This document shows positions 1,221 through 29,882 of a stretch of DNA of 32,000 nt, piece after piece. Location: positions 7,500,001 through 7,532,000 of the forward strand of contig NC_008312.1 of NCBI RefSeq assembly GCF_000014265.1. The letters run 5' to 3'. The DNA comes from Trichodesmium erythraeum IMS101 (lineage in GTDB: Bacteria > Cyanobacteriota > Cyanobacteriia > Cyanobacteriales > Microcoleaceae). The translations under genes were made by a program, and so were the position numbers. Below the pieces are notes generated by a model, which saw only the letters and a list, made by a program, of their open reading frames with translations, made no database searches and had not been told where the DNA came from. How positions within the stretch are numbered: position 1 is the stretch's first letter; every line of letters begins with the position of its first letter.

Positions 1221-2654
1221 ATGAAGAATAACAGACAAAAAAAGTTAAACTACTATCATCTACACTCAACAAATTTATAGCAAGTATAGTCGGGATTATT
1301 TTTGTAGCTACAGTTTTTTTTATTACAAGTTCTATAAACACGAAATATAAAAAAACTAATGATTATTACAATAGAGGTATTGATTATTATAGTCAGAGAG
1401 AACATGAAAAGGCGCTCACTCTGTTTAATGAAGCTATTCAACTCAATCCCAAATTTGTTTATGCTTATTACGGCAGAGGTGATGTTTATCGTGAACAAAG
1501 AAAATATGAGAAGGCAATCACTGAGTACAATAAAGTTATTGAAATCAATTCCGAATTTGCTGATGCTTACAATAAAAGGGGTTTGGTTTACTATAATCAG
1601 GGAGAAGATGAAAAGGCTATTGATGACTATAACCAAGCTATTAAAATCAATTCCGAATATCCTACTACTTACTACGACAGAGGCTTAGTTTACAAAGTTA
1701 GAGGAAATATTGAAAAAACGGTAGTGCTAAAAAGGAAAGGATAGAGGAAAATATAGGGTAACAGTAGTAGAGAGATGCATTTTAATGTCAGACCCCAAGC
1801 CACCCTGTCCATCATGCAATTCTGTCTTCAGTAGTCAAGAATGGTAAAACCCGTCATGGTAGACAGAATCACAAATGCCTAGACTGTGGTCGTCAATTTG
1901 TGGAAAATCCCAAGTGGACAAGAGTCTCAGAGCGTACCCAATCAACCCAAGAGGTGATAGACCAAATGCTACTTGAGAAGATACCCCTGGCTGGAATTGC
2001 CAGAGTGGCGTAGGTCTCAGAAGCATGGTTGCAGAATTATGTCAACCAGAAATACACAGAGTTCTCTGAGCAAGTGGAGGTACAACCGAAGGGGAAGGGA
2101 AGCTTAAAGGTACAAATGGATGAATTATGGTCATTTGTAGAGCATAAAGGAAATAAACAGTGGGTCTGGTTAGCTCTGGATGTAGACACCCGTGAAATTA
2201 TTGGATGCTATATTGGAGACCGTTCTACGGGTTCAGCTCAAAAGCTTTGGGAGTCGTTACCTGCAGTCTATCGTCAGTGTGCGGTTTGCTATACAGATTT
2301 CTGGTCGGCTGGCTGCAGAAGTCTTACCCAGCAAACGACATCAAGCTGTGGGGAAAGAAACTGGTAAAACAAGTTACATTGAACGACTTAACTGTACTTT
2401 ACGGCAACGAGTTTCACGTTTAGTGCGCAAGACCTTATCTTTTTCCAAAAAGCTAGAAAATCATATAGGGGCTATCTGGCATTTCATCCATCATTACAAT
2501 TCCTCATTACCTATAGCTTGATCCTTTCCTTTTTAGGACTACCGAAAAAACTATATCAGATTTTGAAAAAGCTGCTGACCTGTATAAAGAACAAGGAAAT
2601 AAAAAATGGTATCAAAACTCTCTAGATAGACTCAAAGAATTACGAAACAACTAA
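1221..2654 (+). pseudogene. Membrane-anchored TPR-repeat protein gene, inactivated by a frameshift in an A7 run (1237-1243) and by an IS1 insertion
   Basis: ATG 1221 gives MKNNRQKK, then a frame change to VKLLSSTLNKFIASIVGIIFVATVFFITSS (TM helix), followed by TPR units (AL.LFNEAIQLNPKFVYAYYGRGDVY.., AITEYNKVIEINSEFADAYNKRGLVY.., AIDDYNQAIKINSEYPTTYYDRGLVY..). The frame continues exactly across the IS1 element: ..RGNIEKT (ends 1719) joins ISDFEKAADLYKEQGNKKWYQNSLDRLKELRNN-stop (2552-2654). Confidence 0.8.
1720..2543 (+). mobile_element. IS1-family element (824 bp) with a degraded insA/insB-type transposase
   Basis: Terminal inverted repeats GGTAGTGCTAAAAAGGAAAGGAT (1720-1742) and ATCCTTTCCTTTTTAGGACTACC (2521-2543) match at 22/23 positions. 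There is a perfect 8-bp target duplication, GAAAAAAC, at 1712-1719 and 2544-2551. Translation gives CPSCNS..KNGKTRHGRQNHKCLDCGRQF, DELWSFVEHKGNKQWVWLALDVDTREIIGCYIGDRS and KETGKTSYIERLNCTLRQRVSRLVRKTLSFSKKLENH, with at least 2 frameshifts and 1 stop. Confidence 0.9.
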
Positions 2655-4177: not shown

Positions 4178-5461
4178 TAAAGTAGAAGAGAATGTCAAAC
4201 AATTTGTCTTGTAGAGTGCGTAAACGAGCCAAAAGACCTCCTCCAACAGAGCGTTGACGAGGTGAGCGAGTGCAATGTTTGCTCATACATTTGCCCAAAG
4301 GACTCCAACAAAGATTCAAATGCTTTACGGTTTAATGGGTGTTAATGCTCTGAGTAATCTGTCTTGTTTTAAGGCTCGTTCAATATTTAGCATTTTTATG
4401 GGCTTTGTTGCATAAAGATAGAAAATATGGTAACAATAAGCGTGTGGCACAAGAAACCTATAGTAAGGGTAGAGATGAGTAAGTCCAAGTCCAAGTCTAA
4501 GTACCTCTTCAGCAACTGGTCGTAGGTCTGATGCGTCCCTAAGACAGAGAGGGAGCCTCACATTTTGGTTGAATGATGAAGTCATAGAGCAGTGGGTAAA
4601 TCAACAAAAAACTGGACGTAGGGGGGCATCAAATACCTATAGCAATACGGCCATTGAATTTATGGTCACTATACAATTATTGTTTGGTCTGGCCGGACGA
4701 CAGACTGAAGGTTTTGTCGAATCTATATTTCAATTGATGGACTTAGATTTACCAGTACCAGACCATAGCACTGTATCCCGTCGCTTGCTCAAACTGAATA
4801 TCCAACTGCCAGTTATACCAACTAATGAAACTATTCCGTACAGTAGTAGACTCTACAGGGGTGAAAGTTTACGGAGAAGGTGAATGGAAAACAAGAGTTC
4901 ATGGTGTCAGTAAACGGCGTACATGGGGTAAATTACACCTAGGAGTAAATGAGGCTACAGGAGAGATTGTCAGTGGAGTAGTGACTACCAATGATGTCAG
5001 TGATTCACAAGCATTTTCTGAACTTGAGAAATGGAGTAGATGGGGAAATAGCCCAAGTATCAGGAGATGGAGCAGAGCACAAGTATAAATGTTACCAGAA
5101 AGCTAACCAACTAGGAGCAAAAGTAACAATTCCACCCAGGAAAAATGCAGTAATAGGTCAACACGGCAACTGCAAATGCCCACCTCATCCCAGAGATGAA
5201 AACCTCAGAAGAATCAGAAAGGTAGGACGCCAAAAATGGAAGCATGAAAGTGGTTACCATCGGCGTTCTCTATCAGAAACCACAATGTTTAGACTCAAAG
5301 TGAGCTTTGGAGGTCAGTTACGACGAGGAAAATTCGAAAGCCCAAGCAGTAGAGTTGTTCATACAATGTGCCATGCTGAACCGTATGATTCAAACAGGTA
5401 ATACTAATTTCATAAACTTAAGCTACACTTTTAGAAGTAACCTATTATAGAAAATGTCCCC

Positions 5462-6684: not shown

Positions 6685-7503
6685 ATAAGTCGGCCTACTC
6701 TTCATCAATGGCGAGAGATATATTTAACCACAGGTTCAACAACTCAATCAGCCAATATACCTCCCCCTCAGACATCTAAAATTAAAAACTGGGAAGAATG
6801 TGAAAAGTTTGTTGAGGACACTAAGTGAGCAAACTCAAAAACAAATGGCTGCAAAATGGGGAAATTGTAGTCGTTTTACTATTAGTAGAAGTTTAAAAAA
6901 ACTTGGGTTTACTCGTAAAAAAAAACATATGGTTATCAAGAAAGAGACGAAATAGAAAGAGAAAAGTTGGCCTTAAAACTGAATCAAATAGACAAAAAAG
7001 ATATTGTTTATGTAGATGAAGCCGGAATAGATAATAGAGAAGATTATCCTTATGGTTATGGATTTAAAGGCATTCATAGTACCAGGCATGAAGTCCGGAA
7101 AAAGAACTGAGAGAGTTAGTTGGATTGCAGCTATAAATCAATCAAAAATGTTTGCTCCTTTAACATTTACAGGAAGTTGTAATCGTGACTTGTTTGAGAA
7201 CTGGTTGGAAAATTGTTCCCATACCAAAATTACAACCAGGGCAAGTGATTATATTGGATAACGCAACGTTTCATAAATCAGTTTATATTGAAGAATTAGT
7301 GGCCAAGCAAAGGTGTGAAATCTGGTATTTACCACCATACTCACCAGATTTTAATAAGATAGAATGTTGGTGGTTTGTGTTAAAAAACGATCTGCAAACA
7401 AAGACTGAAGAAATTTGATCATTTTAGAGACTGTGTGGATGCAGCTTTTATAGAAAATCCTCAAGTTTTTCCGTAGTGGTGAAAGATATCAATTATTAAT
7501 ATA
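6685..7503 (+). pseudogene. 5'-truncated, frameshifted IS630-family transposase; probably the original transposase of the 2981-8875 host element
   Basis: Translation gives SRPTLHQWREIYLTTGS.., QMAAKWGNCSRFTISRSLKKLGFTRKKK, IVYVDEAGIDNREDYPYGYG, and VIILDNATFHKS..WYLPPYSPDFNKIECWWFVLKN (ORFs 7052-7261 and 7185-7418). Confidence 0.75.
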
Positions 7504-8530
7504 AGAGTTGTTGGGAAATAAGGTAAAATAATTTCAGAAAAAATTTGCCATAAAAATGCTAAATATTGAACGAGCCTTAAAACAAGACAGATTACTCAGA
7601 GCATTAACACCCATTAAACCGTAAAGCATTTGAATCTTTCTTGGAGTCCTTTGGGCAAATGTATGAGCAAACATTGCACTCGCTCACCTCGTCAACGCTC
7701 TGTTGGAGGAGGTCTTTTGGCTCGTTTACGCACTCTACAAGACAAATTGTTTGACATTCTCTTCTACTTTAAATGTTACCCGACTTTTGACTTAGCTGGT
7801 ATCTTGTTTGATATCGACCGTAGTCAAGCACATTATTGGGTTCATCGCTTACAAACTATGTTAGAAGCAGCCTTGGGAGAAAAAAAGGCGCGATGCATTG
7901 CGTCAAATTAACAGTGTCCAAGGATTCATAGAGCGTTTCCCTCGAGTAGAACGAGTGATAATGGATGGCACAGAACGGCCAGTACAAAGACCAACTCACT
8001 CTGAAAAACCAAAACTGAATTATTCAGGAAAAAAAAAGCGTCACACTCGCAAACATCTAGTAGCAGTTAATCAAAACAAGAAAGTGCTGGTATTGAGTCA
8101 GGCACGAGAAGGAAAGCTGCATGAAGTCGAAGTTCCATGACCAGGAAAAATTGATAGGAAATATACCTCTAGAGATTCCGATAGAAGTAGACAGTGGTTT
8201 CCAAGGTCTCCACGCATCAGTATGAAAATATCCGAATCCCCCATAAAAAACCAAAAGGGGGAGAGTTAAGTGAGCAACAAAAACCAGATTTTCGGAAATT
8301 GAGTCAATCAAGGGTAGTCTGTGAAAACGCCTTGGCGGGCGTCAAGCGTTATGGAGCTGTCAGTCAGATTTCTCGTAATCACAAGTATGATTTTGATGAC
8401 AAATTAATGCTAACAGCAACTGGTGAGTGGAACTTATATCTGATGACAGCATAAGTAGTCAAATTACTAGGGAAATATGTCAAGTTTTCGTTTGAGTTTT
8501 TTCTCTCCTAAGTTATTTCCCAACAACTCT
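7504..8530 (+). mobile_element. ISX-A, full-length copy A (1027 bp), IS5/DDE_Tnp_4 (Harbinger-like) family; the transposase is broken into at least 5 frame segments
   Basis: There are 18-bp perfect inverted repeats, AGAGTTGTTGGGAAATAA (7504-7521) and TTATTTCCCAACAACTCT (8513-8530), flanked by ATA on both sides. Coding blocks are MLNIERALKQDRLLRALT, RQRSVGGG..FYFKCYPTFDL.., VIMDGTERPVQRP..NYSGKKKRHT, FHDQEKLIGNIP..EVDSGFQG, and QYENIRIPHKKPKGGELS..VVCENALAGVKRYGAV. Confidence 0.9.
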
Positions 8531-8923
8531 ATAGAATATAGTTGATCTTTGAGGCGATTCTCTCACTCGAGAGGCTTCGCGAATACACTCCCATAACACT
8601 GTGATTCTTTTGTTGTCAGTTAAATCAAAGTGCAACGCGGGAGTCTATAATACCAAATTTTAATCCGAGCTGCCATGCTATAATTATTGCCTGGCAAGGA
8701 TTTTCTGACATCCTTATGTCACATTATTTTTTCAGGCATGGCATAAAACTTTAAGGTAGTGCGATTGCGCCTCCGTTCCGTTGTCACGATCGCATAGAAA
8801 AAATGTCAGTCATGTAGCAGGATGTATACTACATGAATGACATTGGTAGTATGTAAAGATGCCAGCGCTCATTGCTATAACTGAATAATAGTCCAAATCA
8901 AATGGAAAACTTGTTGAGAATAA

Positions 8924-8959
8924 GGGAGAGTTTGTGAACTCTTTGCCACAAACTCTCCC
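8924..8959. repeat. GC-rich palindrome in the left end of ISY copy 1
   Basis: GGGAGAGTTTGTG (8924-8936), a 10-nt loop, then CACAAACTCTCCC (8947-8959): perfect 13-bp arms. Confidence 0.9.
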
Positions 8960-10190
8960 CCTATCCTGGGTTGATTATTTATTCAAAAAACTTTAAATAC
9001 TCTTAAAAATATGATAAAAAAGGGGTGATAATTAAACAAAAAAAATAAAAATGAACATAGGTAATTATCAAGACCAAATAAAGTAGAAATTAAGTCCAGC
9101 TCAATTGAAAATATTAAAAATATTGTTATACTTAATTTCAGTACATAAAGTTGTACAAATATCAAAATTATCACCTTATTTTTCTCTACCAATTCAATCT
9201 AAAAGTCGCCAAAAACACATATAACGTTTTTCAACATTAAAACAATTAATTTTTCCTATATTCTGGTTTATTTTCGTAAAAATCATGGTGAAAACTCTGC
9301 TGTTATCACCATCATAATTAGTGTTATTGTTAGATAAAATCTAGTGGCAAAATATTAATATTTTCATGTTTAATATTATTTGAAAAAAAATAGAATTACC
9401 TATATCATAGAAGATTTGAAGTGATAAAAGTGCAAGTTATCTCACAAAAAAAACAAGCAGAAATTCGTTCTATATTAAGATTGTTGAAGAAATATAAACT
9501 AATTTTAGTAATAGATATAGAATTTCATAGTATTTATTTATCATATTGGTTAAAAAATTATCGTCAAAAACATCTATATTTTGCATTTAGACAAAGAAAA
9601 ATAACCCAAATTAAGGTTGGGAATAAGTATTGTGAAGTACAAAAATTAAACGTAAATGTCGGAAAAAAAAATATTACTCAAATTAAGCAAGTCGGTCTCC
9701 AAAATTTATTAATATATAAAAAACGCCAAATAAACAAAAAAAATATATTATAAACCTGGTATATAATCAGTAATTTCTCATCATCGGATAAAATTAATAA
9801 AGTATATAGTACAAGAATAGGAATTAACGCCATGTTCAAAGATTGTCACCTCTACTTTTACAATCTTGAAGGACCAAAAGCAAATTAAACTAGACTAAAT
9901 AATTTGATTTTACTAACAGCTATTTCTGACATAATTAGTTCATTTAAAGGAAAAAAAATCAAAAATTAAGATATTTAAAAATATATGAATAAAAAAGGTA
10001 GGATAGAGAGAATAAGTAGTAGCTTTTGGCTTAGATTATATGGTTTTTTTGGACATTTTATGATGTTTTTATCCAAGAATAGGTAGAAAATTTAATGAGG
10101 CTAAATTCTCATAAGTTACCCTATTATCGAAAAGGAATTCAAGCTATATTAAAGATTAATATGCTGTACAATAGTTGATTTTTTATTATT

Positions 10191-11324
10191 AGACATCTCC
10201 AAAATAAAAAATAAGGTAAAATTATCAAAACCATTTATTTATAAAGTCTCCCAAATGAATCCAACTTTAGAATATATTTATAACCATCCAAAAGAAACAA
10301 AAAGAATTATTGGCATTACTTATGAACAGCTAATAAAATTAATAGCAAAGGCCCAAATAATAGAATCAGAGAAAAAGAAGGCGATCGCTAAAACAGAAAA
10401 AAGATTAATTAAAGCAGGTGGAGTCAGAAAAAAGAATTTAACAAAGGAGGAAGAAATAATTTTAACGTTATTTTATTTACATCAAATACCGACTTTTCAA
10501 ACATTAGGAATTAACTTTGGTATAAGTGAATCAAGTGCTAATAATATTTTTCATTACTGGATAGATATTCTCAGAGAATTACTGCCAGCAAGTTTATTAG
10601 AACAAGTAAAAAAAAAAAGAAAATGAATTGGAATGGGTAAAGGAGATATTAACAGAATTAGAATTAATTGTAGATAGTACAGAACAAAGTAGAGAAAGAC
10701 CAAGTGAATATAAAGACCAATAAAAATATAAAATATGAAAAAATAAAAATCATACTTTTAAAAATCAAATAATAACGACACCAAAAGGAACAGAAATAGT
10801 AGATGTAATAGTAGGAGAAAAAGGTCCAGTAAGTGATGTAAAAATATTAAGAAAACAACAGGATAAATTTGATAAAAAACAAAAATTTCAAGGAGATAAA
10901 GCTTATGAAGGAGTAGAAAGAACTACTACACCAAAAAAGAAACCAAGAAAAAAAGAAATGCCGCTAGAAATCAAAGAAGAAAATCAAGAAAAAGCCAGAA
11001 AGAGAATATTTGTAGAACATGTAATAAGATTAATTAAAATATTTGGAATTGCTAGAGAAAGATTCAGATTAAAAGATAATAATTATCAAAAAGTAATCTT
11101 AACAATATGTGGTTTAGTGCGACTAAGAATTGGATCTTTTATATTAGCATAAACCATCAAAAGCTGAGATAAAAAGAATAAATTAAAGTACAATAAATAT
11201 TTGAATTAGTAACACAAAGTATCTCTGATGCCCATAAAACTGTACAAATTAACTATCTTCATAAGTAGCGATCGCACCACTAAAGATAGTTAGGATAAGC
11301 GTTTGAGTATTTTTGGAGATGTCT
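10191..11324 (+). mobile_element. Small IS5/DDE_Tnp_4-family element (ISZ) nested in the tail of ISY copy 1; the transposase has an A-run frameshift and in-frame stops
   Basis: The inverted repeats are AGACATCTCCAAAA (10191 on) and TTTTGGAGATGTCT (to 11324), with a 3-bp duplication ATT (10188-10190 and 11325-11327). ORF 10255-10626 is the HTH part (..LFYLHQIPTFQTLGINFGISESSANNIF..). The downstream frames give LIVDSTEQSRERP, stop-containing ..KNHTFKNQ.., FQGDKAYEG and RIFVEHVIRLIKIFGIARERFRL (ORF 10958-11152). Confidence 0.85.
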
Positions 11325-11400: not shown

Positions 11401-11445
11401 TAGGGGGTGTAGTGCGAGCGCAGAGCGCTCGCACTACACCCCCTA
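11401..11445. repeat. 45-bp perfect palindrome at the head-to-tail junction of ISY copies 1 and 2
   Basis: TAGGGGGTGTAGTGCGAGCGC - AGA - GCGCTCGCACTACACCCCCTA: 21-bp arms and a 3-nt centre. Confidence 0.95.
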
Positions 11446-12831
11446 CCCATGGTTGATTATTTATTCATTAAAACATTAAAAAAAACTGTTAAAAATATGA
11501 TAAAAAAGGGTTAATAATTACAAAAAAAAAGAAGAAAAAGTGAATATATTAGGCTTTTATCAAGACCATATTAAGCAAAAGTTGAGTCCATCTCAAGTAG
11601 TAACATTACAAATATTATTATACTTAATTTCAGTACATAAAACTGTACAAATATCAAAGCTAACCAATTATTTTCAGCTACCAATTAAATCAGAACGTAA
11701 GCGAAAACTTATGCGAAAGATTTTTAACCCTAAAGGAATTAAGTTTACCTATATTTTGGTTCCCTTTAGTCAAAATAATGGTAAAAAATCTCTTCAGCTT
11801 TACCTCAGAGTTAGTGTTGATTTTAGACCGCACTCAGTGGCAAAATATTAATATTTTAATGATAACTGTAGCTTGGAAAAAGAGAGCTTTACCTATATAT
11901 TGGAAGATTTTATCTCATAAAGGAGCTAGTAATTTAACCGAACAAAAATCAGTAATTCGCCCTGTATTAAAATTATTGAAAGCACACAAAATAATTCTCA
12001 CAGCACCCTAGAATTCCACAGTATTTTCCTGTGCCATTGGTTGAAAGAATATAAAAAAAAAGACGTATATTTTGTCTTGAGACAAAAAAAATCAACTATG
12101 ATAAAACGAGGGAGAAAATATTGTCAACTCTCAGAGTTAAAAGTAAATATCGGTGAATCCCAACTATTATTGAATCAAAAAATTACCAAAATTTTGAAGG
12201 TAGGAACATATAATTTACTTGTATATAAAAGACAGAAATATCGTCACAATTCTGTTTCAGAGAAATGGTATATTCTCTCCAATTTATCATAGTAATGTGG
12301 AAAAGTTAAAAAAATATATAGCCAGAGAATGGCCATAGAAGCCATGTTTAAGGATTATAAAACTGGTGGTTATAATCTAGAATCAGCAAAAGCCAACGAA
12401 ACTAGACTTAATAATCTAATTTTATTAATAGCTATTTCATACACAATTAGTTCATTTAAAAGACAATAAATTAAAAATAAAGGAGTTCAAGAATATATAT
12501 CAAGAACTAATGAAAGAGGTAGAAAAGAAAGAAGAAACAGTAGTTTTTGCTTAGGGTTATCTAGTATTTATTGGGCAATAAATGATGATTTAATGTGGAA
12601 ATTAGTAGAAAATTTAATGAGCCTTAATCCTCATAAATTACTATATTATCGCAGGGGAATAAAAGCGATGAATAAAGTGGTTAATTAGACTGTAATTTTT
12701 GATTAAAAATTAATTAATAAAGTTAAGTTTTTTCATGATATTATTCTACCGCACAACTTGAATTATTCCTCAGCCCCTGAAGGCAAATCCTTTTATATAT
12801 ATAGCTTTCAACTGGCTTGTCACTCCGTGAG
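11401..12831 (+). mobile_element. ISY copy 2, the least decayed IS4-family-like copy (frameshifted transposase, roughly 11540-12690); it lacks the outer ~100 bp of the left end
   Basis: ORFs 11540-11851, 11778-12011 and 12041-12292, plus downstream frames, give ..ILDRTQWQNINILMITVAWKKRALPIYWKIL.., (D)REFHS.., MAIEAMFKDYKTGGYNLESAKANETRLNNLILLIAISYT and ..LMSLNPHKLLYYRRGIKAMNKV, an IS4-like DDE layout. The copy ends in GCTTGTCACTCCGTGAG (12815-12831), the inverse of the left terminus at 2923-2939. Confidence 0.7.
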
Positions 12832-13353: not shown

Positions 13354-13373
13354 CCTGCATATATAGATATATA

Positions 13374-14399
13374 AGAGTTGTTGGGAAATAAGGTAAAATA
13401 ATTTCAGAAAAAATTTGCCATAAAAATGCTAAATATTGAACGAGCCTTAAAACAAGACAGATTACTCAGAGCATTAACACCCATTAAACCGTAAAGCATT
13501 TGAATCTTTCTTGGAGTCCTTTGGGCAAATGTATGAGCAAACATTGCACTCGCTCACCTCGTCAACGCTCTGTTGGAGGAGGTCTTTTGGCTCGTTTACG
13601 CACTCTACAAGACAAATTGTTTGACATTCTCTTCTACTTTAAATGTTACCCGACTTTTGACTTAGCTGGTATCTTGTTTGATATCGACCGTAGTCAAGCA
13701 CATTATTGGGTTCATCGCTTACAAACTATGTTAGAAGCAGCCTTGGGAGAAAAAAAGGCGCGATGCATTGCGTCAAATTAACAGTGTCCAAGGATTCATA
13801 GAGCGTTTCCCTCGAGTAGAACGAGTGATAATGGATGGCACAGAACGGCCAGTACAAAGACCAACTCACTCTGAAAAACCAAAACTGAATTATTCAGGAA
13901 AAAAAAAGCGTCACACTCGCAAACATCTAGTAGCAGTTAATCAAAACAAGAAAGTGCTGGTATTGAGTCAGGCACGAGAAGGAAAGCTGCATGAAGTCGA
14001 AGTTCCATGACCAGGAAAAATTGATAGGAAATATACCTCTAGAGATTCCGATAGAAGTAGACAGTGGTTTCCAAGGTCTCCACGCATCAGTATGAAAATA
14101 TCCGAATCCCCCATAAAAAACCAAAAGGGGGAGAGTTAAGTGAGCAACAAAAACAGATTTTCGGAAATTGAGTCAATCAAGGGTAGTCTGTGAAAACGCC
14201 TTGGCGGGCGTCAAGCGTTATGGAGCTGTCAGTCAGATTTCTCGTAATCACAAGTATGATTTTGATGACAAATTAATGCTAACAGCAACTGGTGAGTGGA
14301 ACTTATATCTGATGACAGCATAAGTAGTCAAATTACTAGGGAAATATGTCAAGTTTTCGTTTGAGTTTTTTCTCTCCTAAGTTATTTCCCAACAACTCT
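13374..14399 (+). mobile_element. ISX-A, full-length copy B (1026 bp)
   Basis: A base-by-base comparison with copy A (offset 5870) shows identity except for one missing C (A: AAAACCAGATTTT at ~8281-8293; B: AAAACAGATTTT at ~14151). The inverted repeats are the same. The flanks are ATA (left) and ATT (right). Confidence 0.9.
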
Positions 14400-14461
14400 A
14401 TTACGTCAGTCCTATTTATATTAACCTTGAAACTTCTGTGGTACTTTGAACTGACTATAGT

Positions 14462-14524: not shown

Positions 14525-14851
14525 TCAACATGACTCTGGTAAAATCTCAGTAACAGTCTCATAAAAATTAATTTCTGGTGGTTTGGCAAATAAATGTGAA
14601 ATTTTTGCCAATGTTGCTTTATAATCATCAGTTGAATTAGCATCCATATCTTCAACTCCTTCCCAAAAAATTACAGCAATACCTTTATCTGTTCCTGGCA
14701 ACTGTAATAAATAGGCACCTTTAAAACCTTTATTATAAGTCTTAACTGCCTTTTCATAAAGTTCTTTTGCTTCTTGAAACCTTCCAGGTTTAAATTCTCC
14801 CACCGCAACATAAGCGTATTTGTGCTTCAAAAAGTCCATAAAATCTGACAT
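14525..14851 (-). CDS. Hypothetical 108-aa protein
   Basis: An intact ORF with non-repetitive composition (..AYVAVGEFKPGRFQEAKELYEKAVKTYNKGFKGAYLLQLPGTDKGIAVIFWEGVEDMDAN..). It lies on the same strand as the PAD-like gene, 355 bp downstream of it. I cannot assign a family. Confidence 0.6.
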   Translation of the reverse strand: MSDFMDFLKHKYAYVAVGEFKPGRFQEAKELYEKAVKTYNKGFKGAYLLQLPGTDKGIAVIFWEGVEDMDANSTDDYKATLAKISHLFAKPPEINFYETVTEILPESC

Positions 14852-15206: not shown

Positions 15207-17504
15207 TTATTTCGTATCTACCATATCTAAACTTTGCCCTCTAAACCCTAATATATTTTCAGATAAGGATTTCCAGAAAGGATGATTTTTTCCTAAGCGA
15301 GTTGTATTCACAGCATCATGTACATTTCCTCTTAGTTGTTGATAATATTGATCATCCATAAAATTAATATTTAAGCTTGAATTCGACACCAACCTGCGAA
15401 ATTTCTCTTGAGTATAATCTCGACCATTAATTAATGCTCCTCCGGGACTAGAAACCAATAATTCTCCATTAATTACCACTGAATTAACCATATTCGGCCA
15501 CCAAGCATAACCGCTATATCCAAACATAGCTGGTACTTGAATTATCTGGTCATTGCTCAGATTAAATTCCTGTTTTAACTTCTCAATTAATGGGTTTAAT
15601 TTTTCCCGTTGTAAATAGAGATTATGCTGAACTAACTTTTCATTTTTCAACGCAGCCCGCACTGTTATTTGAGTGCTTAAACCACGATTTATAGCAGCTT
15701 TACCATAGTTTTCTTCACTGAGTTCTTCTAATAATTTGACCCCTGCTTCTGGACTCACAATTAACATTAGAGGTTTGCCAGTTTTACTAGGAATAAAACT
15801 AATAATTTCATCTACATGACGCATCATTAACCAAGAAGTATCAATATCTACTGGGGGACCCTGAATTTTCTGTGCTTTGATGAAATCAATAATATCAGGA
15901 TTCATACCCACTTCACCTGCTTTCCCATAATAAACTCTTCCCATAGGATATCCTGGTAAAGGTGGTGTTACTTCTAGATTTCCATAAGCATCTGCCCACC
16001 TGTTGAGAGGATCTAGTTGTCTGGGTTTACCAACTTCAAACCAACCAAAATTTTCTTTGAGGAGGCTTCTAGCATACTGATCATTTTCCTGTAGACGGTT
16101 ACCTTTAAGTACCACATTCATATTGTGCATTTTACCTTGAGTGGGAAACTGCACATAACCTATTTTTTTAGTATCTTGCATCCAGGTTGTTCCGCCAGGA
16201 TTAATTTTAGCTGTCACACCTGTTTTTTCAATAATTTCAGTGATTTTACTGATAAACTTTTGATTAGCTAAACCTCGCTCACTAACGTGCAGTTCTTTGA
16301 CTGGAGCAGTATTAGGAGACATTAACCAAGGAACTACACCTATTTGAATACTATCAGAAGCAATTTGTCTACCATTTTTTTTAGCTATCGCTGTCAAGTT
16401 AACAACTCCTTTCCAGTCCCTGTCAGCAAATTGTTTAGCTTCTACACCTAATACTATCTTTGCTCTAGATATTAATGCTTCAGTGCCAGAAAGATCTACT
16501 GGTTGCCATCCAGATTCTGTTTTTTGGAAGATATTGATATAGTTATTAACATCTGCGTCAGTAGAGATGTAGATTTGAGCATCTCTATAGTTTTCTGCTA
16601 ATCGAATATTGACAATAGCTAAATCTGCTACATCATTTTCACCATTAACATCCCCATCTCGCCAATCTGGGATTAGATCGCCGTTATCATCATCATTATT
16701 AAATAACATTAATGCACCTTCTGATAAAGACCAGTTTTCTCTACCTGACTTGTCAGTTTCATCCACTTTCCCATCTCTGTTAGTATCACCATACATGGTA
16801 AAACCTGGAGATAAACTATATGCAATGGGTCGATAAGTTTTGGTATGGCTATTTGTCTTCTTTTCTTTCTCTTTTTCCCATACTCTTACTGCCATTACTT
16901 TTTCATAACAGGCCACTGCTAGATACCCCTGATATTCAAGCATTTTTTCGATCGCTTTATCTGTCATCAATGAATCTTGAGGAATTTGACGTAAACTATA
17001 AATTGCCTCTAACCAAAGATTTTCTGCTTCTTCCCAGGTTTGATAATTTGCTTGTAGTTTTTTTCCTTTTGCTACAGCATTGGTTGCTATGCTCAGTGCT
17101 TGTTTCCAACTTTGAAGAGCTTTTTCTTCTTTAATAATTTTTGCTTCTATACTGCGGAAGTCTTTCAAAGTTTTTTCATACTGTTGTAACTGGAATTGGT
17201 ATTGCCAAGGTTCCCTAACTTTCTTGAAGTTTGGCATTTTAGAGACTCGCTCTAGTTCTACTTTTAATTGATCTTTTATCTGGTACAGTTCTGTCAGTGA
17301 ACTTATTGTTTTAGGAATTTTTAAGTTCTTGTTTATCGACTTGATAGTTTCTAAGGCAGAAATTTCTGAGTTAGCTGGCTCAGGAAGTGAAGATTGTGCC
17401 ACTGCTTGAGGTACAGGTACCCAGATAATTCCTACTAATGCCCCAACAGTATTTACTAGAGCTATTTTTATGTATTGTATCCAACCCATAATATATATCC
17501 TCAT
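15207..17504 (-). CDS. Secreted protein-arginine deiminase (PAD)-family homologue with an N-terminal signal peptide and helical extension; the catalytic Cys position is Asp
   Basis: A 765-aa intact ORF. The N-terminus IALVNTVGALVGIIWVPVPQAVA-QSS is signal-peptide-like. PAD-type blocks are DTNRDGKVDETD, GALMLFNNDDDNGD, VVPWLMSPNT, TTWMQDTKKIGYVQFP, YGNLEVTPP, WLMMRHVDEIISF, WWPNMVNSVV and C-terminal GNVHDAVNTTR. A possible alternative start is Met6. Confidence 0.85.
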   Translation of the reverse strand: MRIYIMGWIQYIKIALVNTVGALVGIIWVPVPQAVAQSSLPEPANSEISALETIKSINKNLKIPKTISSLTELYQIKDQLKVELERVSKMPNFKKVREPWQYQFQLQQYEKTLKDFRSIEAKIIKEEKALQSWKQALSIATNAVAKGKKLQANYQTWEEAENLWLEAIYSLRQIPQDSLMTDKAIEKMLEYQGYLAVACYEKVMAVRVWEKEKEKKTNSHTKTYRPIAYSLSPGFTMYGDTNRDGKVDETDKSGRENWSLSEGALMLFNNDDDNGDLIPDWRDGDVNGENDVADLAIVNIRLAENYRDAQIYISTDADVNNYINIFQKTESGWQPVDLSGTEALISRAKIVLGVEAKQFADRDWKGVVNLTAIAKKNGRQIASDSIQIGVVPWLMSPNTAPVKELHVSERGLANQKFISKITEIIEKTGVTAKINPGGTTWMQDTKKIGYVQFPTQGKMHNMNVVLKGNRLQENDQYARSLLKENFGWFEVGKPRQLDPLNRWADAYGNLEVTPPLPGYPMGRVYYGKAGEVGMNPDIIDFIKAQKIQGPPVDIDTSWLMMRHVDEIISFIPSKTGKPLMLIVSPEAGVKLLEELSEENYGKAAINRGLSTQITVRAALKNEKLVQHNLYLQREKLNPLIEKLKQEFNLSNDQIIQVPAMFGYSGYAWWPNMVNSVVINGELLVSSPGGALINGRDYTQEKFRRLVSNSSLNINFMDDQYYQQLRGNVHDAVNTTRLGKNHPFWKSLSENILGFRGQSLDMVDTK

Positions 17505-17633
17505 GTATAGTTATAAATTTTAGCTAATTTCTACCAATTTATTCTGTGTTACAGAAGTCGAAACTTATAAGTCAAAAGTTAATAGTCAATGGTGAGTAGG
17601 GAGTAGCTTATAAGGGGAGATTATTTATAATAG

Positions 17634-19265
17634 TTTATTGGGTGACAAACAGGTCAAAACTATTGTGAGAGCATTAAATTTCTGTAAAAAATTGACGATT
17701 TTTGTAATAATAATAATTATTCTTAGTGAGGGTGTTGCTTCAGATCACCGACACCCAGAGCCTATATTGACTTAATATTCATTCAATGCTAACGACAAAG
17801 TTTATATAAGTCAATTTTCATTCCATAAGCATTTATTGCACATTTTTTACTGCCAGAGTTATGCCTAGGAGCCGTAATGGTGATGGATAATTTACCTTCA
17901 CATAAACTATAGCAATCTGCTTATAGGTTATGGTATAATTTTTTATGGAAAAATTTTTGGAAAATCGAATATTTGACTATCTGCAAAAAACTTAAATAAC
18001 TACTTAACTACTTTAAGATAACTGCAAAAATGATCAAGTTGTCTAATAAAATTTTTGGTTTGTAACCAAATATCTTTAACAGGATTTTGCTCGGTAGTAT
18101 TTTGAGCTAATTTTGTAAATTTATCAACTATTCTTATTTTGATAAATCTTGATTATTTGAGCTAATTTTGTAAATTTATCAACTATTCTTATTTTGATAA
18201 ATCTTGATTAATTGTCCTTAAGTATTATAGAAATTATTGAGAGTTATGGTAAGTTTCTCTATCCCCAAATCTTACTAATTTTTTACCAGGTATTTGAGCA
18301 GTGAAAATATTTCATAAATTGTATGGTATTTTTAGTATTTCCACGGATCTAATTTTTGTACAATAAATTATTGGGTTTGATAGTCTAAGTCGCTATAATA
18401 AGTCTGGATTTTAAATTAATTTTTAATTACAACTTTTATTTTTTAATCTGTTTATAGCCAAGCATCAGCTAATAAATATACCCATAAAATATTACATCTT
18501 TAATATAAAGAATATAAGCTTTTGATCTACTATTTCAGGTTGCATTATGGCTCAAAATTCCTTCCTAGCTTTTTTTTATTGCACTAATTAATCATTTTTA
18601 TTTAGCTTCTTTTTTTGAGGTTTTTCAGTTTGATAATATAGGTTTTTTTATAGTGATATATTTATCTATATAATGGAAAATATAGACTAAATATTCATAA
18701 GTTATGACTCACAATTCACCATATATAACTTACCAAAAATTGCTATTCATTCTATTTTTTTTTACCTGGATAAAAGAATCAATAAATGTATTTTTAATAC
18801 CTGGATTTTTTGATGATAATAACAAAGTTGACCAGAAAATCCTATAAGCACTATTCTATCAGTCAAACTAAATTGATCAATTGTTGGGTATTAGCTTGAC
18901 CTTCTCTAAAATTATATCCTCCTGTTTTACAGTCAAATAACATAGCTTCAATACCCATTCTCGAACGAGAATTTCTTCATACTTCATCTAAATTGTCAAT
19001 ATTTATCAACAGGTACTATCGTTCTTTTTCTACTTTCTGATTATATTTACTTTTTTCTAGCTATTTACATGCTAGATTTGTATCATTCAAGCTAAATTGA
19101 ATAATCAATCAACTTAGTGTTGGGGTGTCTAGAGCGCGATCACGTTCGGTAAATACTGATCAATAATAATTATTATTCTTGCAAAAACTACCAATTTTTG
19201 AGGTTAGTGAATATCCCACAAACCACTATCTCATAATAGTTTTAAGGTGCTTATCACCCCGTAAG
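17634..19265. mobile_element. Fully decayed ~1.6-kb element bounded by ~125-bp imperfect inverted repeats (possibly IS630-like)
   Basis: 17641-17765 (GGTGACAAACAGGTCAAAACTATTGTGAGAG...TTTTTGTAATAATAATAATTATT..) aligns with the reverse complement of 19120-19262 (GGTGATAAGCACCTTAAAACTATTATGAGAT...TTTTTGCAAGAATAATAATTATT..). The interior has no long ORF. One relic, ..GAVMVMDNLPSHK (~17865-17905), resembles an IS630 DDE block. Confidence 0.5.
18101..18210 (+). repeat. Perfect tandem duplication of a 55-bp unit (2 copies)
   Basis: TTTGAGCTAATTTTGTAAATTTATCAACTATTCTTATTTTGATAAATCTTGATTA occurs at 18101-18155 and again at 18156-18210. Confidence 0.95.
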
Positions 19266-19389
19266 AGCAATAGATATGATGTGAAAAAGGATACAGAGGA
19301 GAATGAGCCAAAGTCCTTATGAATAGGAGCTATAAGTAAAACTTCTGAGACTAGAAGCACTCAAAGGTCAAGAGAAAGAAAGGAGAAAT

Positions 19390-19650
19390 TGATTTAAGAT
19401 ATTTAGATGAAAGTGGGTTTAATTTGATTTGATTCCTTAGGAATGGCCATATAAAGATTTAATAATAACTTGTAAAAGTTCTTCAAGTAATGTTATGGGA
19501 TTAATGAATTACTAAAACGAATTATTTGATGCCCATAGTCAAGGGAAATATTAATAGTGCAGTAGTTATTAAGTTTTGGGAAAAATTTAGTTAAAAATTG
19601 TCCAAAAGAATTGTAGTAGTTACGGACTAAGCTTCAATTTATTAGAGCGA
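19390..19650 (+). pseudogene. Relic of an IS630-family transposase (central part)
   Basis: Translation fragments are ..IDLRYLDESGFNL.., ..NVMGLMN.. and ..KELVVVTD-stop-ASIY.., interrupted by many stops. Confidence 0.4.
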
Positions 19651-19814
19651 TCGCGCAGTGAATAAATTAGAAGAACAGCTGATGGGAATTCCTATAGTAA
19701 TTACTATATATTTCCGGTTGAGAGATCATAATTATAAATTTTGTAGGATATTAACCAATATCTCTTTAGCTTGATTTTATCTGTCTAATTATGACTTTTC
19801 AACCGGAAATTATC

Positions 19815-20591
19815 CTAAGGTTCTCTAACCATATCCCTATTTGGTTGAGACCAATTAGCTGTTTCCTCATTATTAGTACTGGACCCATTACTAGGTAATT
19901 CTAAGCAATAGCCAGCACCATATACGGTTTTAATATACCGAGGATGACGAGGATCTGGTTCCATTTTAGTTCTGAGATGTCTAATATGGACTCGAATTGT
20001 CTCAATATCATCGTCTGGATCGTAACCCCAGACTTCCTTAAGAATTTCACTAGGAGATACTGTCTGGCCATGGCGTTGTAGTAAACAATGGAGTAACTCA
20101 AATTCCAGATGAGTTAATTTAACTGTTTGATCAAACCAGATAGCCTCAAACCTTTCGGGAACCAGGGTCAAAGGGCCATAACTTAGTATTTCACTATGTT
20201 TAGCTGCTTGAGGAATTCGATCTGTGCGTCGCAGTAAAGCACGGACTCGTGCCAGCATTTCTTCTATTTCAAAGGGTTTTGTTAAATAATCATCTGCACC
20301 AGCATTAAAACCTTCTACTTTATCTTGGGTTTGACCCAAAGCAGTTAACATCAACACTGGAATATCCGCTGTTCGTTCATCACGACGCAGACGTTGACAT
20401 ACTGTAAACCCATCTACTTTCGGCAGCATTAAATCTAACACTATCAGGTCTGGTAATAGTTGCAAAGCTAGAGCTTGTCCTTTTATACCATCTTCTGCTT
20501 GACTAACTTCATAGCCAGCCATTTCTAAGTTTACGGCAACGAGTTCTGCGATCGCAGGATCATCATCAATGACGAGTATTCGGGGCATCAT
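19815..20591 (-). CDS. rpaA: OmpR-family response regulator RpaA (circadian/global output regulator)
   Basis: A 258-aa ORF. The receiver domain ([103 protein letters not shown]) and winged-helix domain (..[73 protein letters not shown]) closely match the Synechococcus elongatus RpaA sequence as I recall it. Confidence 0.9.
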
Positions 20592-23880: not shown

Positions 23881-25360
23881 ATGACAAGCCAGCTGGGAGA
23901 TAGATATATCAAGAAATTTACAGTTTAAGCTGAATAATAATTCAAGTCCAATGGAAAGCTTATTGAGAATAAGGGGGGGTTGGTGAACATAAAACGTTCA
24001 CCAACTCCCCCCCTATTTTAGGTTGATTATTTATTCAAAAAAAATATTTTAAATGCTATTAAAAATATAATAAAAGATTGTTTATAATTCAACAAAAAAA
24101 CAATCTAAATGAAGATATTGGGTAATTATCAAGACCAAATAAAGCATAAATTAAGTTCAGCGATCTAGTTGAAATATTAAAAAAAATTGTGGTATTTAAT
24201 ATCAGTGCATAAAAATGTACAAATATCAAAGTCATCAGCTTTTTTTTACCTACAAATTAAATCTAAAAATAGCCGAAAATATATATAATTATTTTTAATG
24301 TTAAAAGTATTAATTTTGTATATATGGTTTACTTTAGTCGAAATTATGATAAATACACGGCTTTTATTTTCATCATAGTTAGTGTTAGTTTTAAATAATA
24401 ATTAGTAGACAAAAATATCAATATATTAATTATAAGTGTAGTGTATAAAAAAAAAGAGCATTACCTATATACTGGAAAATTTTAAGTCATCAAGGTGTAA
24501 GTAATAGAATGGAACAATAAGAAGTAATTCGTCTTTTTTTAAGATAATTGAAAAAATATTAACTAATTTTAGTATGAGATAAGGAATTCCATAGTATATA
24601 TCTATCATGTTGGTTAAAAAGTCATTTTCAAAAATATCTATACTTTCCATTTATACAAAGAAAAAAAAACCGAAACTAAGGGTAGTAGTAAATATTTTAA
24701 ACTATAGCAATTAATAGTAAAAATTAGCTTAAAAAAAATATTACTAAATAAAAAAAGTCGAAAATCAAGGAATTCATTTTTCGCAATTTTTGATCTATAA
24801 GAAAAGTGTAAAATTAACCAGAAAATCTATCATAAACATGATAAATTATTAGTTCTTTTCATCATAATATAAAATCAAGAAAGTATATATTCAAAGAATA
24901 ATAATTGAGGTCATTTTCAAAGATTGTAAGAGTAAAATTTACAATATTGAAGGAGCAAAAGCAAATAAAACTAGATTAAATAATTGAATTTTACTACATA
25001 GCTATTTCTTAGACAATTAGTTAATTTAAAGAATAAAAAATTAAAAATAAAGGTATGTAAAATATATGTAAAGAAGGAATAAAACAGGCAAAATAGAGAG
25101 AAGGCATAATAACTTTTGGATTAGATTCTATGGTGTTTTTTGGATATTTTATTATAGTTTCATTCAAGAATAGGTAAAAAATTTAATAATGCTAAGTTCT
25201 CATAAGTTACCCTATTATCAAAAAGGAATTAAAGCTATGTTAAAGATTAATAATCTGTATAATCGTTAATTTTTTATGATTAATTAAAATTAATAAAAGT
25301 GACCTTTTTTCTAATGTTGTTGGCTATTAAATTTAAACTATTTTTTAACGAAAGTAGGGG
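23881..25360 (+). mobile_element. ISY copy 3, extremely decayed (A/T-run expansions, no ORF left); the left terminus is slightly truncated
   Basis: It is collinear with copies 1 and 2: ATGACAAGCCAGCTGGGAGATAGATATATC.., GCTGAATAATAATTCAAGTCC.., a palindrome, GGTTGATTATTTATTCA, and a body and tail (..SHKLPYYQKGIKAMLKINN.. region ~25190-25260). Confidence 0.65.
23973..24013. repeat. GC-rich near-perfect palindrome in the left end of ISY copy 3
   Basis: GGGGGGGTTGGTGAAC - ATAAAA - CGTTCACCAACTCCCCCCC. The arms are complementary except for a 2-nt bulge (CT). Confidence 0.85.
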
Positions 25361-28671: not shown

Positions 28672-28859
28672 ATATGTTCTCAGATTGTAGTTCTTGGTTT
28701 ATATAGTTGTTATTTTGTTTGCAATTTTTCCAGATACATCAGGTAATATGCTTGTTAATAAACTGACAAAAAAATCAAACAGATAGAAGCAATAATTTTA
28801 TCAATAACTTGGCTATTGGGATAAGTTATTGGTTTTTTACGTTTTAATTATACCACATT

Positions 28860-29882
28860 AGAGTTGTTGGGAAATAAGGTTAAATTAAGTTAAGAAGAAA
28901 TTGGTGCTGAGAAATGCTAAATATAAAACGGGCCTTAAAACAGGATAGGTTACTCAGAGCATTAACACCAATTAAATCGTAAAGCATTTCAATTCTTACT
29001 CTTAACCTTTACTCAAATATATGAGCAAATATTGAGGAACAAACCTCGTCAACGCTCTGTTGGAGTAGGCCTTTTGGCTCGTTTACCCACCGTTGAAGAC
29101 AAATGATTTTATATCCTCTTCTACTTGAAAAGTTATCCCACCTTTGATTTGGCTAGTATTCTGTTTGACATGGACCGTAGCCAGGCACATTATTGGGCTC
29201 ATCGCTTACAGCCTATATTAGAAGCAACCTTGGGAGAAAAAAAAGCACTACCAGAACGCCAAATCAACAGTTTCCAAGCATTTATAGAATGTTTTCCTTG
29301 AGTAGAACGAGTAGTAATGGATGGCACAGACGGCGCAACGACCCAATGACTCAGAAAAACCAAAACTGAATTATTCAGGAAAAAAAAGCGTAATACCTGT
29401 AAACACCTAGCAGCAGTAGACCAAAACAAACAAGTGCTGGTATTGAGCCAAGATCGAGTTGGAAAATTACATGAGGAAGAAATTACATGAGGAAGAAAAG
29501 TTGATAGGAAATATACCAGGGGAGATACTAATTGAAGTTATGAGTGGGTTTCAAGGTATTCAACAGCAGTATAAAAATATCCACATACCCCATAAGAAAC
29601 CAAAAGGGGGAGAATTAATAGCAACAGCAACGCCTTGAAAATCGGACATTAAGTCAATAAGCGGGTGATATGTGAAAACGCCTTTGCGGGTATCAAGGGC
29701 TATGGGGCTGTTAATCAGATTTACCGTAATTATAAGTATGATTTTGAGACAAATTAATGTTAACAGCAACTGGACTATGGAACCTGTAACTGATGGCAGC
29801 ATAAATAATAAAATCACGCTCTCAAAATTGATTAGTTTGATTTTTATTGTTCGCGCTCCCTAAGTTATTTCCCAAGAACTCT
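28860..29882 (+). mobile_element. ISX-B, full-length diverged copy (1023 bp), transposase pseudogenised
   Basis: The inverted repeats are AGAGTTGTTGGGAAATAAGG (28860 on) and ..TTATTTCCCAAGAACTCT (to 29882), with a 3-bp duplication ATT (28857-28859 and 29883-29885). By eye it is roughly 80 percent similar to ISX-A. Coding blocks are RQRSVGVG.., DRSQAHYWAHRLQPILEATLGEKKALPERQINSFQAF and HIPHKKPKGGEL.., with stops and frameshifts. Confidence 0.85.

Follow-up and report, generated by a model that had tools for sequence, protein, structure and literature searches.

Introduction

Protein-arginine deiminases (PADs) have been studied mainly as vertebrate enzymes, and their bacterial members have been used chiefly to argue about the origin of animal citrullination. 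What becomes of such a protein when its nucleophilic cysteine is gone? The question is raised by a stretch of 32,000 nucleotides from Trichodesmium erythraeum IMS101 (contig NC_008312.1, positions 7,500,001 to 7,532,000; hereafter the window, in whose own numbering all coordinates are given). By far the longest open reading frame (ORF) of the window, at 15207..17504 on the minus strand, encodes a PAD homologue, referred to as the window protein, that carries aspartate at the nucleophile position. An earlier reading of the bare DNA (the original prediction) had singled out this ORF as an intact, exported PAD homologue, and had suggested either a pseudoenzyme or binding module or an enzyme using different chemistry. 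Here, we report that the cysteine is missing from a whole clade of filamentous cyanobacterial proteins. The window protein is probably a Sec-exported, Ca2+-binding PAD-fold pseudoenzyme that no longer deiminates arginine, the pocket of which perhaps serves as an arginine-binding module.

The gene already has an annotation. An exact-sequence look-up placed the window protein in the same 90% cluster as ABG53851.1 / WP_011614146.1 / UniProt Q10V73, an entry that is named 'Protein-arginine deiminase [Trichodesmium erythraeum IMS101]', has 760 aa and begins at Met6 of the 765-aa ORF; no NCBIfam model names the protein. Cummings et al. (2022; PMC8826395) also include it, as the row 'Trichodesmium_erythraeum_IMS101' of their supplementary alignments, which matches in its N-terminus (MGWIQYIK...) and in a C-terminus that includes ...RGNVHDAVNTTRLGKNHPFWKSL..., and it appears in their trees. 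Databases thus already list the gene and its relatives as enzymes, and the 2022 data set includes seven of them. In its text, that study analyses 'representative' sequences, calls all catalytic residues conserved among PADI homologues and mentions no cysteine loss (PMC8826395). Among the open-access papers and bioRxiv preprints searched, we found nothing on a bacterial PAD pseudoenzyme, a Trichodesmium PAD or the accession numbers, nor any description of a prokaryotic, exported PAD-fold pseudoenzyme clade, which is absence of evidence only; Schriek et al. (2007) concerns the unrelated Sll1336-type enzyme Tery_4659.

Results

Family membership and fold

The ORF and its two PAD domains are as follows.

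15207..17504, minus strand: complete ORF of 765 aa with its stop codon at 15207-15209; the annotated and conserved start is Met6 (17487-17489), giving 760 aa
16371..16808, minus strand: PAD middle (Ig-like) domain, residues 233-378, assigned by Pfam and by a Foldseek match to PAD4
15273..16364, minus strand: PAD catalytic-type (alpha/beta propeller) domain, residues 381-744, with zero cysteines

Profile searches and the predicted structure both assign the window protein to the PAD sequence and fold family. The catalytic-type domain scored 212.1 bits with Pfam PAD (PF03068; cut-off 25, E=1.7e-62, residues 381-744, profile positions 2-394 of 395), and the middle domain scored 30.9 bits with PAD_M (PF08527; cut-off 24.8, E=2.6e-7, residues 239-371). 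When PDB sequences were searched with phmmer, human PAD4 was matched at E=8e-49 over residues 224-745; PAD4, PAD2, PAD1 and PAD3 all fell between E=1e-46 and 1e-49 over the same residues, and the PADI6 chains scored far below them (E=1e-22 to 3e-19). The identity to PAD4 is 26-27%. An AlphaFold2 model built with 40 homologues reached a mean predicted local distance difference test score (pLDDT) of 77.7, with the PAD part mostly at 80-97, and Foldseek superposed it on PAD4 (5n0z) at E=1.4e-45 with a template modelling score (target) of 0.73 and a root-mean-square deviation of 2.9 Å over ~550 columns.

The block-by-block resemblance to vertebrate PADs from which the original prediction started was recovered in the phmmer alignment with PAD4: GALMLFNNDDD pairs with GAILLVNCDRD, VVPWLMSPNT with VAPWIMTPNT, TWMQDTKKIGYVQFP with QWMQDEMEIGYIQAP, YGNLEVTPP with FGNLEVSPP, RHVDEIISF with GHVDEFLSF, WWPNMVN with FFPNMVN, and GNVHDAVN with GEVH(C645A)GTN.

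An active site without a cysteine

PAD4 numbering was counted along the 1wd9 chain, which is the C645A mutant and in which the chain index equals the native number plus 7. The positions concerned are the following.

15315..15317, minus strand: Asp730 (codon GAT), within GNVH-D-AVN, at the position of the PAD4 nucleophile Cys645 (chain index 652 of 1wd9)
16173..16184, minus strand: W441-M-Q443-D444, equivalent to PAD4 W347, Q349 (Ca1) and D350 (catalytic Asp), all kept
15810..15818, minus strand: H563-V-D565, equivalent to PAD4 H471 and D473, both kept
16164..16166, minus strand: Lys447, at the position of PAD4 Glu353 (Ca1 ligand); Glu is kept in Okeania orthologues

The aspartate at the nucleophile position and the retention of the other three catalytic residues, both read originally from the letters alone, are therefore borne out by this alignment: the tetrad D350/H471/D473/C645 is represented by D444, H563 and D565, with Asp730 in the place of residue 645. 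Since the defining catalytic tetrad of active PADs is incomplete, the window protein should not, as far as its sequence can tell, be classed among the enzymatic protein-arginine deiminases (EC 3.5.3.15). Among the substrate-binding residues, W441 and R470 (PAD4 W347 and R372) are kept and the R374 position is Gln472, a position that is also variable in Cys-keeping two-domain bacterial PADs. Two of the three Ca1 ligands are present (Q349, E353 and E411, of which E353 is changed to Lys) and none of the four Ca2 ligands (E351, D369, S370 and N373); the Ca2 site is likewise absent from Cys-keeping two-domain bacterial PADs (PMC8826395).

Another cysteine acting as stand-in nucleophile was considered and rejected, as neither PAD_M nor PAD_C of the window protein contains any; its sole cysteine is C199, in the N-terminal helical domain described below. 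The same two domains are free of cysteine in 111 of the 117 family members introduced next.

Loss of the cysteine throughout a clade

A homology search returned 286 proteins at E<=1e-5. The best 120 were inspected, none of which has Cys at the nucleophile position, and the 117 full-length ones were aligned with PAD4 (MAFFT). The column reads S in 73, D in 19, T in 11, G in 8, A in 4, and Q and N in one each. These 117 sequences span 44-100% identity to the window protein, with Trichodesmium, Dapis and Okeania homologues at 75-100% and those of Lyngbya, Planktothrix, Kamptonema, Capilliphycus, Arthrospira, Tychonema and Microcoleus at 44-60%; among the relatives examined, the clade is confined to filamentous Oscillatoriales/Microcoleaceae. 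A loss common to members only 44-60% identical must be old.

Outside the clade, the cysteine is the rule. An exhaustive HMMER search of 1.84 billion cluster representatives gave 1612 relatives and, among the best 150, those outside the Cys-less clade (~140 more distant sequences) nearly all keep G-x-x-H-C-[GA]-[TS]-N. Closest among the Cys-keeping relatives is WP_190761010.1 from Microcoleus sp. FACHB-68 (P0122), a 623-aa protein with the motif GNTHCATN and 60% identity over residues 234-747. In a distance-based neighbour-joining tree (Kimura-type correction, 516 columns), the Cys-less sequences are monophyletic (bootstrap 91/100) with P0122 as their sister (100/100); within the 41 sequences of the tree, all Asp-bearing ones except a single outlier group as a subclade (87/100). 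The aspartate variant thus does group by descent, as could be asked of the original prediction, but as an isolated oddity it does not stand, since all 117 homologues lack the cysteine. The simplest history suggested by these sequences is that the cysteine was lost once, at or near the gain of the helical N-domain, and that the position was replaced several times later.

In the published Newick trees (PMC8826395), the Trichodesmium row shares a long branch with Arthrospira, Lyngbya, Planktothrix and Oscillatoria, placed amid two-domain bacterial PADs. The row lies outside the SPM/NX cyanobacterial and metazoan clade and is not an animal-type three-domain PAD (clade Ai), so that the link to the origin of animal PADs drawn by the original prediction is weak.

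A second group of PAD homologues, unrelated to this clade (P0161, P0180, P0233 and P0249), has also lost the nucleophile cysteine and carries Arg in its place (e.g. GGVHRATQ, DGVYRRTS), so that prokaryotes may have evolved PAD-fold pseudoenzymes on more than one occasion.

Relaxation of the active site

Conservation of at least 95% across 45 Cys-keeping homologues singled out 34 columns, which were then scored in 41 non-redundant Cys-less proteins. Twenty of these columns are still 95-100% conserved; many of these are Gly or Pro, and only N153 and E252, both Ca2+ ligands, are functional positions. Structural G/P/F/Y columns stay 100% conserved. The other 14 are relaxed, and all but one of these are catalytic, substrate or Ca2+-ligand positions (13/14, Fisher p=1.4e-6). 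The relaxed columns, in PAD4 numbering and with the fraction of sequences keeping the ancestral residue, are listed here.

C645: 0.00
H644: 0.37
R372: 0.49
E353: 0.66
G408: 0.68
D155: 0.76
H471: 0.78
D176: 0.83
D350: 0.83
D157: 0.85
D473: 0.85
D165: 0.88
Q349: 0.88
W347: 0.90

The further losses follow sublineages, with H471Q in Microcoleus, D350G in a Planktothrix-like group and D473S in a Lyngbya-like group; that different sublineages lost different residues is expected once catalysis is gone and the fold alone is needed. The 19 Asp-bearing sequences, which reach down to ~56% identity, show no variation at W347, D350, H471, D473 and Asp645; E411, R372 and H644 vary among them. The R374 position is never Arg anywhere in the Cys-less clade.

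Integrity of the gene and selection

The ORF is intact over its 765 codons, and the reading frame is unbroken in all full-length relatives. An identical protein is encoded by 29 contigs, Tara Oceans assemblies among them. Four independent metagenome assemblies differ from the window at four nucleotides, none of them protein-changing, and the Asp730 codon GAT is identical in these four contigs and in 13 orthologues. Against the same 13 orthologues (from Dapis, Okeania, Trichodesmium and Microcoleaceae genomes; dS 0.26-0.89), the ratio of nonsynonymous to synonymous substitution rates (dN/dS, Nei-Gojobori) is 0.15-0.24 overall, 0.10-0.18 in PAD_C, the lowest of the domains, and 0.23-0.33 in the helical N-domain. 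By this measure the gene is under purifying selection and is therefore not decaying; dN/dS near 1 and an error in the codon, the two findings that would have spoken for a dying or misread gene, were both looked for and neither was seen.

Calcium-binding positions of the middle domain

Two groups of acidic residues lie in PAD_M.

16623..16700, minus strand: acidic cluster N269, D271, D273, D280, D283, D285, D291 and D294, from the PAD4 alignment
16752..16787, minus strand: EF-hand-like loop DTNRDGKVDETD, residues 240-251, with D240, N242, R243, D244 and D251 invariant in the clade

The cluster corresponds to PAD4 N153, D155, D157, D165, D168, E170, D176 and D179, ligands of Ca3, Ca4 and Ca5, for which we assume the allotment to individual sites given in the PAD4 and PAD2 structure papers. 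The loop, which we take to be Ca site 6 of PAD2, is also found in Cys-keeping bacterial PADs. Bacterial PADs carry the D125N/E131D form of that site (Cummings et al., 2022; PMC8826395). Homology thus supports the prediction, made originally from the acidic motifs, that the middle domain keeps Ca2+ binding.

The N-terminal region

Three segments precede the PAD part.

17397..17504, minus strand: putative N-terminal export signal, residues 1-36, with Lys13, a hydrophobic stretch (14-31), a Pro-x-Pro (P-V-P) and AVA36 followed by Q37
16881..17321, minus strand: clade-specific helical N-domain, residues ~62-208, with four long Lys/Glu/Gln-rich helices (AlphaFold2)
16809..16880, minus strand: disordered charged linker WEKEKEKK..., residues 209-232, pLDDT <50

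The signal was judged by eye from hydropathy and from the N-termini of orthologues; it lacks a twin-Arg and is accordingly Sec-like. G21 and Q37 are invariant in the family alignment and A36 is at least 90% conserved. This looks like an N-terminal Sec signal, and given its unusually strong conservation a cleaved peptide and an uncleaved membrane anchor would both fit. Export had been put forward as a trait that sets the protein apart, which it does not, since Cys-keeping bacterial relatives also begin with hydrophobic signal-like segments.

The ~200-aa Lys/Glu-rich helical region noted at the outset is present, with 26 Lys and 21 Glu in 195 residues and helices predicted by AlphaFold2 over residues 70-208. 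Modelled alone, the helical N-domain reached a pLDDT of 81. It is absent from the Cys-keeping sister P0122, and it appears to have no recognizable relatives in the searches made: single-sequence and profile searches of a 5.8-billion-protein set recovered nothing but fragments of this family, the PDB searched by profile gave nothing below E=0.07, Pfam searches on 13 members gave scattered chance matches only, and Foldseek with the AlphaFold2 model gave nothing below E=0.3. The PAD_N cupredoxin-like domain has no Pfam match in the window protein, in which residues 62-208 are all-helical and without a structural relative.

The charged linker, ~20 aa long in the window protein, is expanded to 100-150 aa of KELERQE-type repeats in Microcoleus. 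In the Microcoleus/Tychonema homologues P0080-P0120 and P0121 (e.g. L009 8001-10712), the insert consists of KELERQEFEKQELAR-type charged repeats at the junction of the helical N-domain and PAD_M, and Pfam labels it HC2. It looks like a single-helix spacer of variable length, which hints at a structural, distance-setting role.

Genomic surroundings

Two neighbours on the same strand are shared with Okeania.

14525..14851, minus strand: 108-aa ORF lying directly downstream of the PAD-like gene and syntenic in Okeania hirsuta (88% identity)
19815..20591, minus strand: OmpR-family response regulator upstream, 94% identical and syntenic in Okeania

The 108-aa ORF has no Pfam or NCBIfam family; its 88% identity to the syntenic Okeania hirsuta ORF marks it as a real conserved small protein. 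The response regulator falls below the cut-off of the RpaB model (226 versus 330 bits), and it may resemble the clock-output regulator RpaA. A conserved neighbourhood was pursued as a clue to function and given up: a 154-aa ORF, the OmpR-type regulator and the 108-aa ORF are common to Trichodesmium and Okeania only, and the neighbours in Kamptonema, Planktothrix and Microcoleus are unrelated. As its synteny is absent from these three, the regulator is probably just a neighbour of the PAD-like gene.

The spacer between the response-regulator and PAD-like genes (17505-19814) is 2.3 kb long with no ORF of at least 60 aa, versus ~0.6 kb in Okeania hirsuta, and contains a 55-bp tandem repeat at 18101-18214 (2.1 copies, 98% matches). 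Rfam had no match anywhere in the window, the spacer included, and promoter and terminator scans stayed at chance level.

The 'IS graveyard' of the original prediction is real in so far as repeated insertion sequence (IS) fragments are present. A ~1-kb fragment occurs at 7499-8532 and 13369-14401, 100% identical, in direct orientation and 5.87 kb apart, identity that speaks for very recent transposition or gene conversion; further copies lie among 28857-29747, 759-1117 and 4178-4401, comprising a third copy (75-90% identical) and inverted partial copies (99-100%). The copies carry DDE_Tnp_4 / HTH_Tnp_4 debris ORFs, and the window holds several DDE-transposase debris ORFs. An AT-rich repeat of ~1.2 kb (~21-28% GC) has three copies, 62-87% identical, at 8953-10191, 11439-12713 and 24009-25282, one of them overlapping the ORF at 10255-10626, which has an HTH_Tnp_4 domain; this repeat probably represents another, older family of mobile elements. 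The overlapping ORFs 1256-1636 (minus strand) and 1359-1688 (plus strand) contain a 102-nt unit in three tandem copies (1359-1664, 69-71% identical). Among the few other intact housekeeping genes of the window is an FtsW/RodA-family (SEDS) gene at 30485-31666 on the minus strand (Pfam FTSW_RODA_SPOVE, E=6e-100). The accompanying picture of an eroding genome was off: the host is the free-living Trichodesmium erythraeum, the genome of which is unusually IS-rich and poor in coding sequence as its normal state, and is not that of a shrinking symbiont.

Discussion

Proposed role

Of the two options first offered for the window protein, the pseudoenzyme or binding module is the better reading, and different chemistry is disfavoured because the nucleophile position is S/D/T/G/A/Q/N and other active-site residues vary across the clade. 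In the ancestor of the Microcoleaceae/Oscillatoriales PAD-like clade, the thiolate nucleophile would have been lost and the ~150-residue helical N-domain gained. Afterwards, catalytic, substrate and Ca1 positions would have drifted by sublineage while purifying selection kept the fold. The Trichodesmium/Okeania/Dapis pocket retains the guanidinium-clamping Asp444 and Asp565 together with His563 and Trp441, and Asp730 adds a third carboxylate in the place of the thiolate. Such a pocket could still bind a guanidinium group, of peptidyl-arginine or a related ligand, without turnover, like the PAD4 C645A crystals; PAD4 C645A binds substrate (histone) peptides without turning them over (PDB entries 1wda and 2dew/2dex/2dey). 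The protein might then serve as a module for binding or scaffolding, be it in the periplasm, the cell envelope or the thylakoid lumen, where the helical N-domain and the charged linker would act as tether or spacer.

We put forward only tentatively the larger proposal that the clade is a one-time-born family of exported, cysteine-free PAD-fold proteins, a counterpart of PADI6, in which the Trichodesmium/Okeania branch would be a non-catalytic arginine/guanidinium reader; its radical version would be a member of the deiminase superfamily with a carboxylate in the role of the thiolate.

Several points weigh against the pseudoenzyme reading and its parts. Arginine binding by the pocket is doubtful on sequence grounds, because R374 is never Arg in the clade, R372 is variable and the window protein has E353K, and the active-site cleft may not be formed as in PAD4. 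The invariance of D350, H471, D473, W347 and Asp645 in the Asp subclade also fits a retained but altered catalytic site. The tree is distance-based and not maximum likelihood; the signal peptide was assigned by eye only, and a segment so unusually well conserved could instead be a membrane anchor that is not cleaved off.

Alternative explanations

A structural or scaffolding protein of the envelope, in which the former active site is irrelevant, the PAD fold is an oligomerising block and the N-domain and spacer set distances in the periplasm or septa, seems to us unlikely as the whole answer, although it overlaps the pseudoenzyme reading and both can hold. The confinement of the clade to filamentous Oscillatoriales/Microcoleaceae would suit such a role, as would the E/R/K-rich spacer that ranges from the short form of the window protein to the long one of Microcoleus, and pocket residues that are unlike between subclades. 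There is also a precedent in PADI6, ring oligomers of which scaffold oocyte cytoplasmic lattices (PMC13253339), and vertebrate PADs dimerise (PMC9174705). However, the full D/H/D trio kept in the Asp subclade would be left unexplained, and no partner gene is conserved, synteny being kept between Trichodesmium and Okeania only.

It is improbable that the window protein is still an enzyme, with Asp730 as nucleophile or as water-activating general base acting with D444, H563 and D565 on a guanidino or amidino substrate that need not be peptidyl-arginine. What speaks for it is that the 19 Asp sequences hold W347, D350, H471, D473 and Asp645 invariant while the other subclades have each lost another catalytic residue, and that PAD_C has the lowest dN/dS of the protein. 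Yet sister subclades of like architecture and conservation have S/T/G/A/Q/N at the same position, so that no particular residue is needed there clade-wide; the active-site and Ca1-ligand columns are specifically relaxed; E411, R372 and H644 vary even inside the Asp subclade, and the window protein itself has E353K. Moreover, we know of no member of the guanidino-group-modifying superfamily with a carboxylate nucleophile.

A recently inactivated pseudogene-to-be, or an Asp codon that is an assembly or sequencing error, might be suspected in a window rich in IS fragments and broken ORFs, but both are ruled out for practical purposes by the dN/dS of 0.15-0.24 at dS of up to 0.89, the frame intact in all full-length relatives, the GAT codon repeated in independent assemblies and orthologues, and the age of a loss that the clade has in common.

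Significance

A large, well-conserved cyanobacterial branch, named 'protein-arginine deiminase' in databases and used in PAD phylogenies, is judged from its sequences almost certainly not a citrullinating enzyme. For Trichodesmium, Planktothrix, Microcoleus and Arthrospira, database names and metabolic inferences of citrullination call for correction. The unit of interest is the clade and not a single gene in an 'eroding' genome: with one loss, an extant sister that still has the Cys and an active site decayed to different degrees in different sublineages, it offers a clean natural experiment in the passage from enzyme to pseudoenzyme. After PADI6, the clade gives a second and independent example of the PAD fold being reused without catalysis, and makes such uses testable in bacteria. 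The finding has no bearing on the origin of animal PADs.

Comparison with known PADs

With human PAD4 and PAD2 (the 1wd9, 1wda, 5n0z and 4n2x series), the window protein shares the PAD_M Ig-like and PAD_C alpha/beta-propeller fold and, in PAD4 numbering, W347, Q349, D350, R372, E411, H471, D473, H644, N648 and the acidic Ca3/4/5 ligands. Unlike PAD4, it has Cys645 replaced by Asp, E353K, R374Q and D388N, and is without the Ca2 site (E351T, D369K, S370G, N373L); a helical domain replaces the PAD_N cupredoxin domain, and an N-terminal export signal, judged by eye, is predicted.

The Porphyromonas gingivalis enzyme PPAD is exported, belongs to the guanidino-group-modifying superfamily and acts on peptidyl-arginine. 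By its description it stands apart from the window protein, being of an agmatine-deiminase-like family and not PF03068, Ca2+-independent and in possession of its catalytic Cys; it is mentioned as 'pPAD' in PMC9174705.

The 'cyanoPADI' of Cyanothece sp. 8801 is another cyanobacterial PAD homologue, which belongs to the superfamily of the window protein and likewise figures in the data set of Cummings et al. It is a three-domain PAD of the SPM/NX clade that is active, Ca2+-dependent and citrullinates proteins in vitro (Cummings et al., 2022; PMC8826395). It belongs to another clade, the window sequence lying outside clade Aii in the published trees, and has a degenerate PAD_N and all catalytic residues.

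Closer are the Cys-keeping two-domain bacterial PADs. P0122 has PAD_M and PAD_C, a DTNRDG loop and an N-terminal hydrophobic signal, and with the Phormidium/Sodalinema protein P0124 it shares the G-N-x-H-x-A-x-N motif of the window protein. They differ in keeping Cys and an invariant W/Q/D/E/R/E/H/D/H set, and in having no ~150-aa helical N-domain.

The nearest functional parallel is mammalian PADI6, which is without the catalytic Cys, inactive, and acts as a scaffold (PMC9174705; PMC13253339). Both have kept the PAD fold, have lost the catalytic Cys and some Ca2+ ligands, and are under selection for what in the window protein would likewise be a non-catalytic role. Their origins are separate, the sister of the cyanobacterial clade being a Cys-keeping bacterial two-domain PAD; PADI6 is cytoplasmic, whereas the window protein is predicted to be exported, with a different N-terminal domain and no known partners. 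On the evidence of the trees and sequences, the resemblance is one of analogy and not of common descent.

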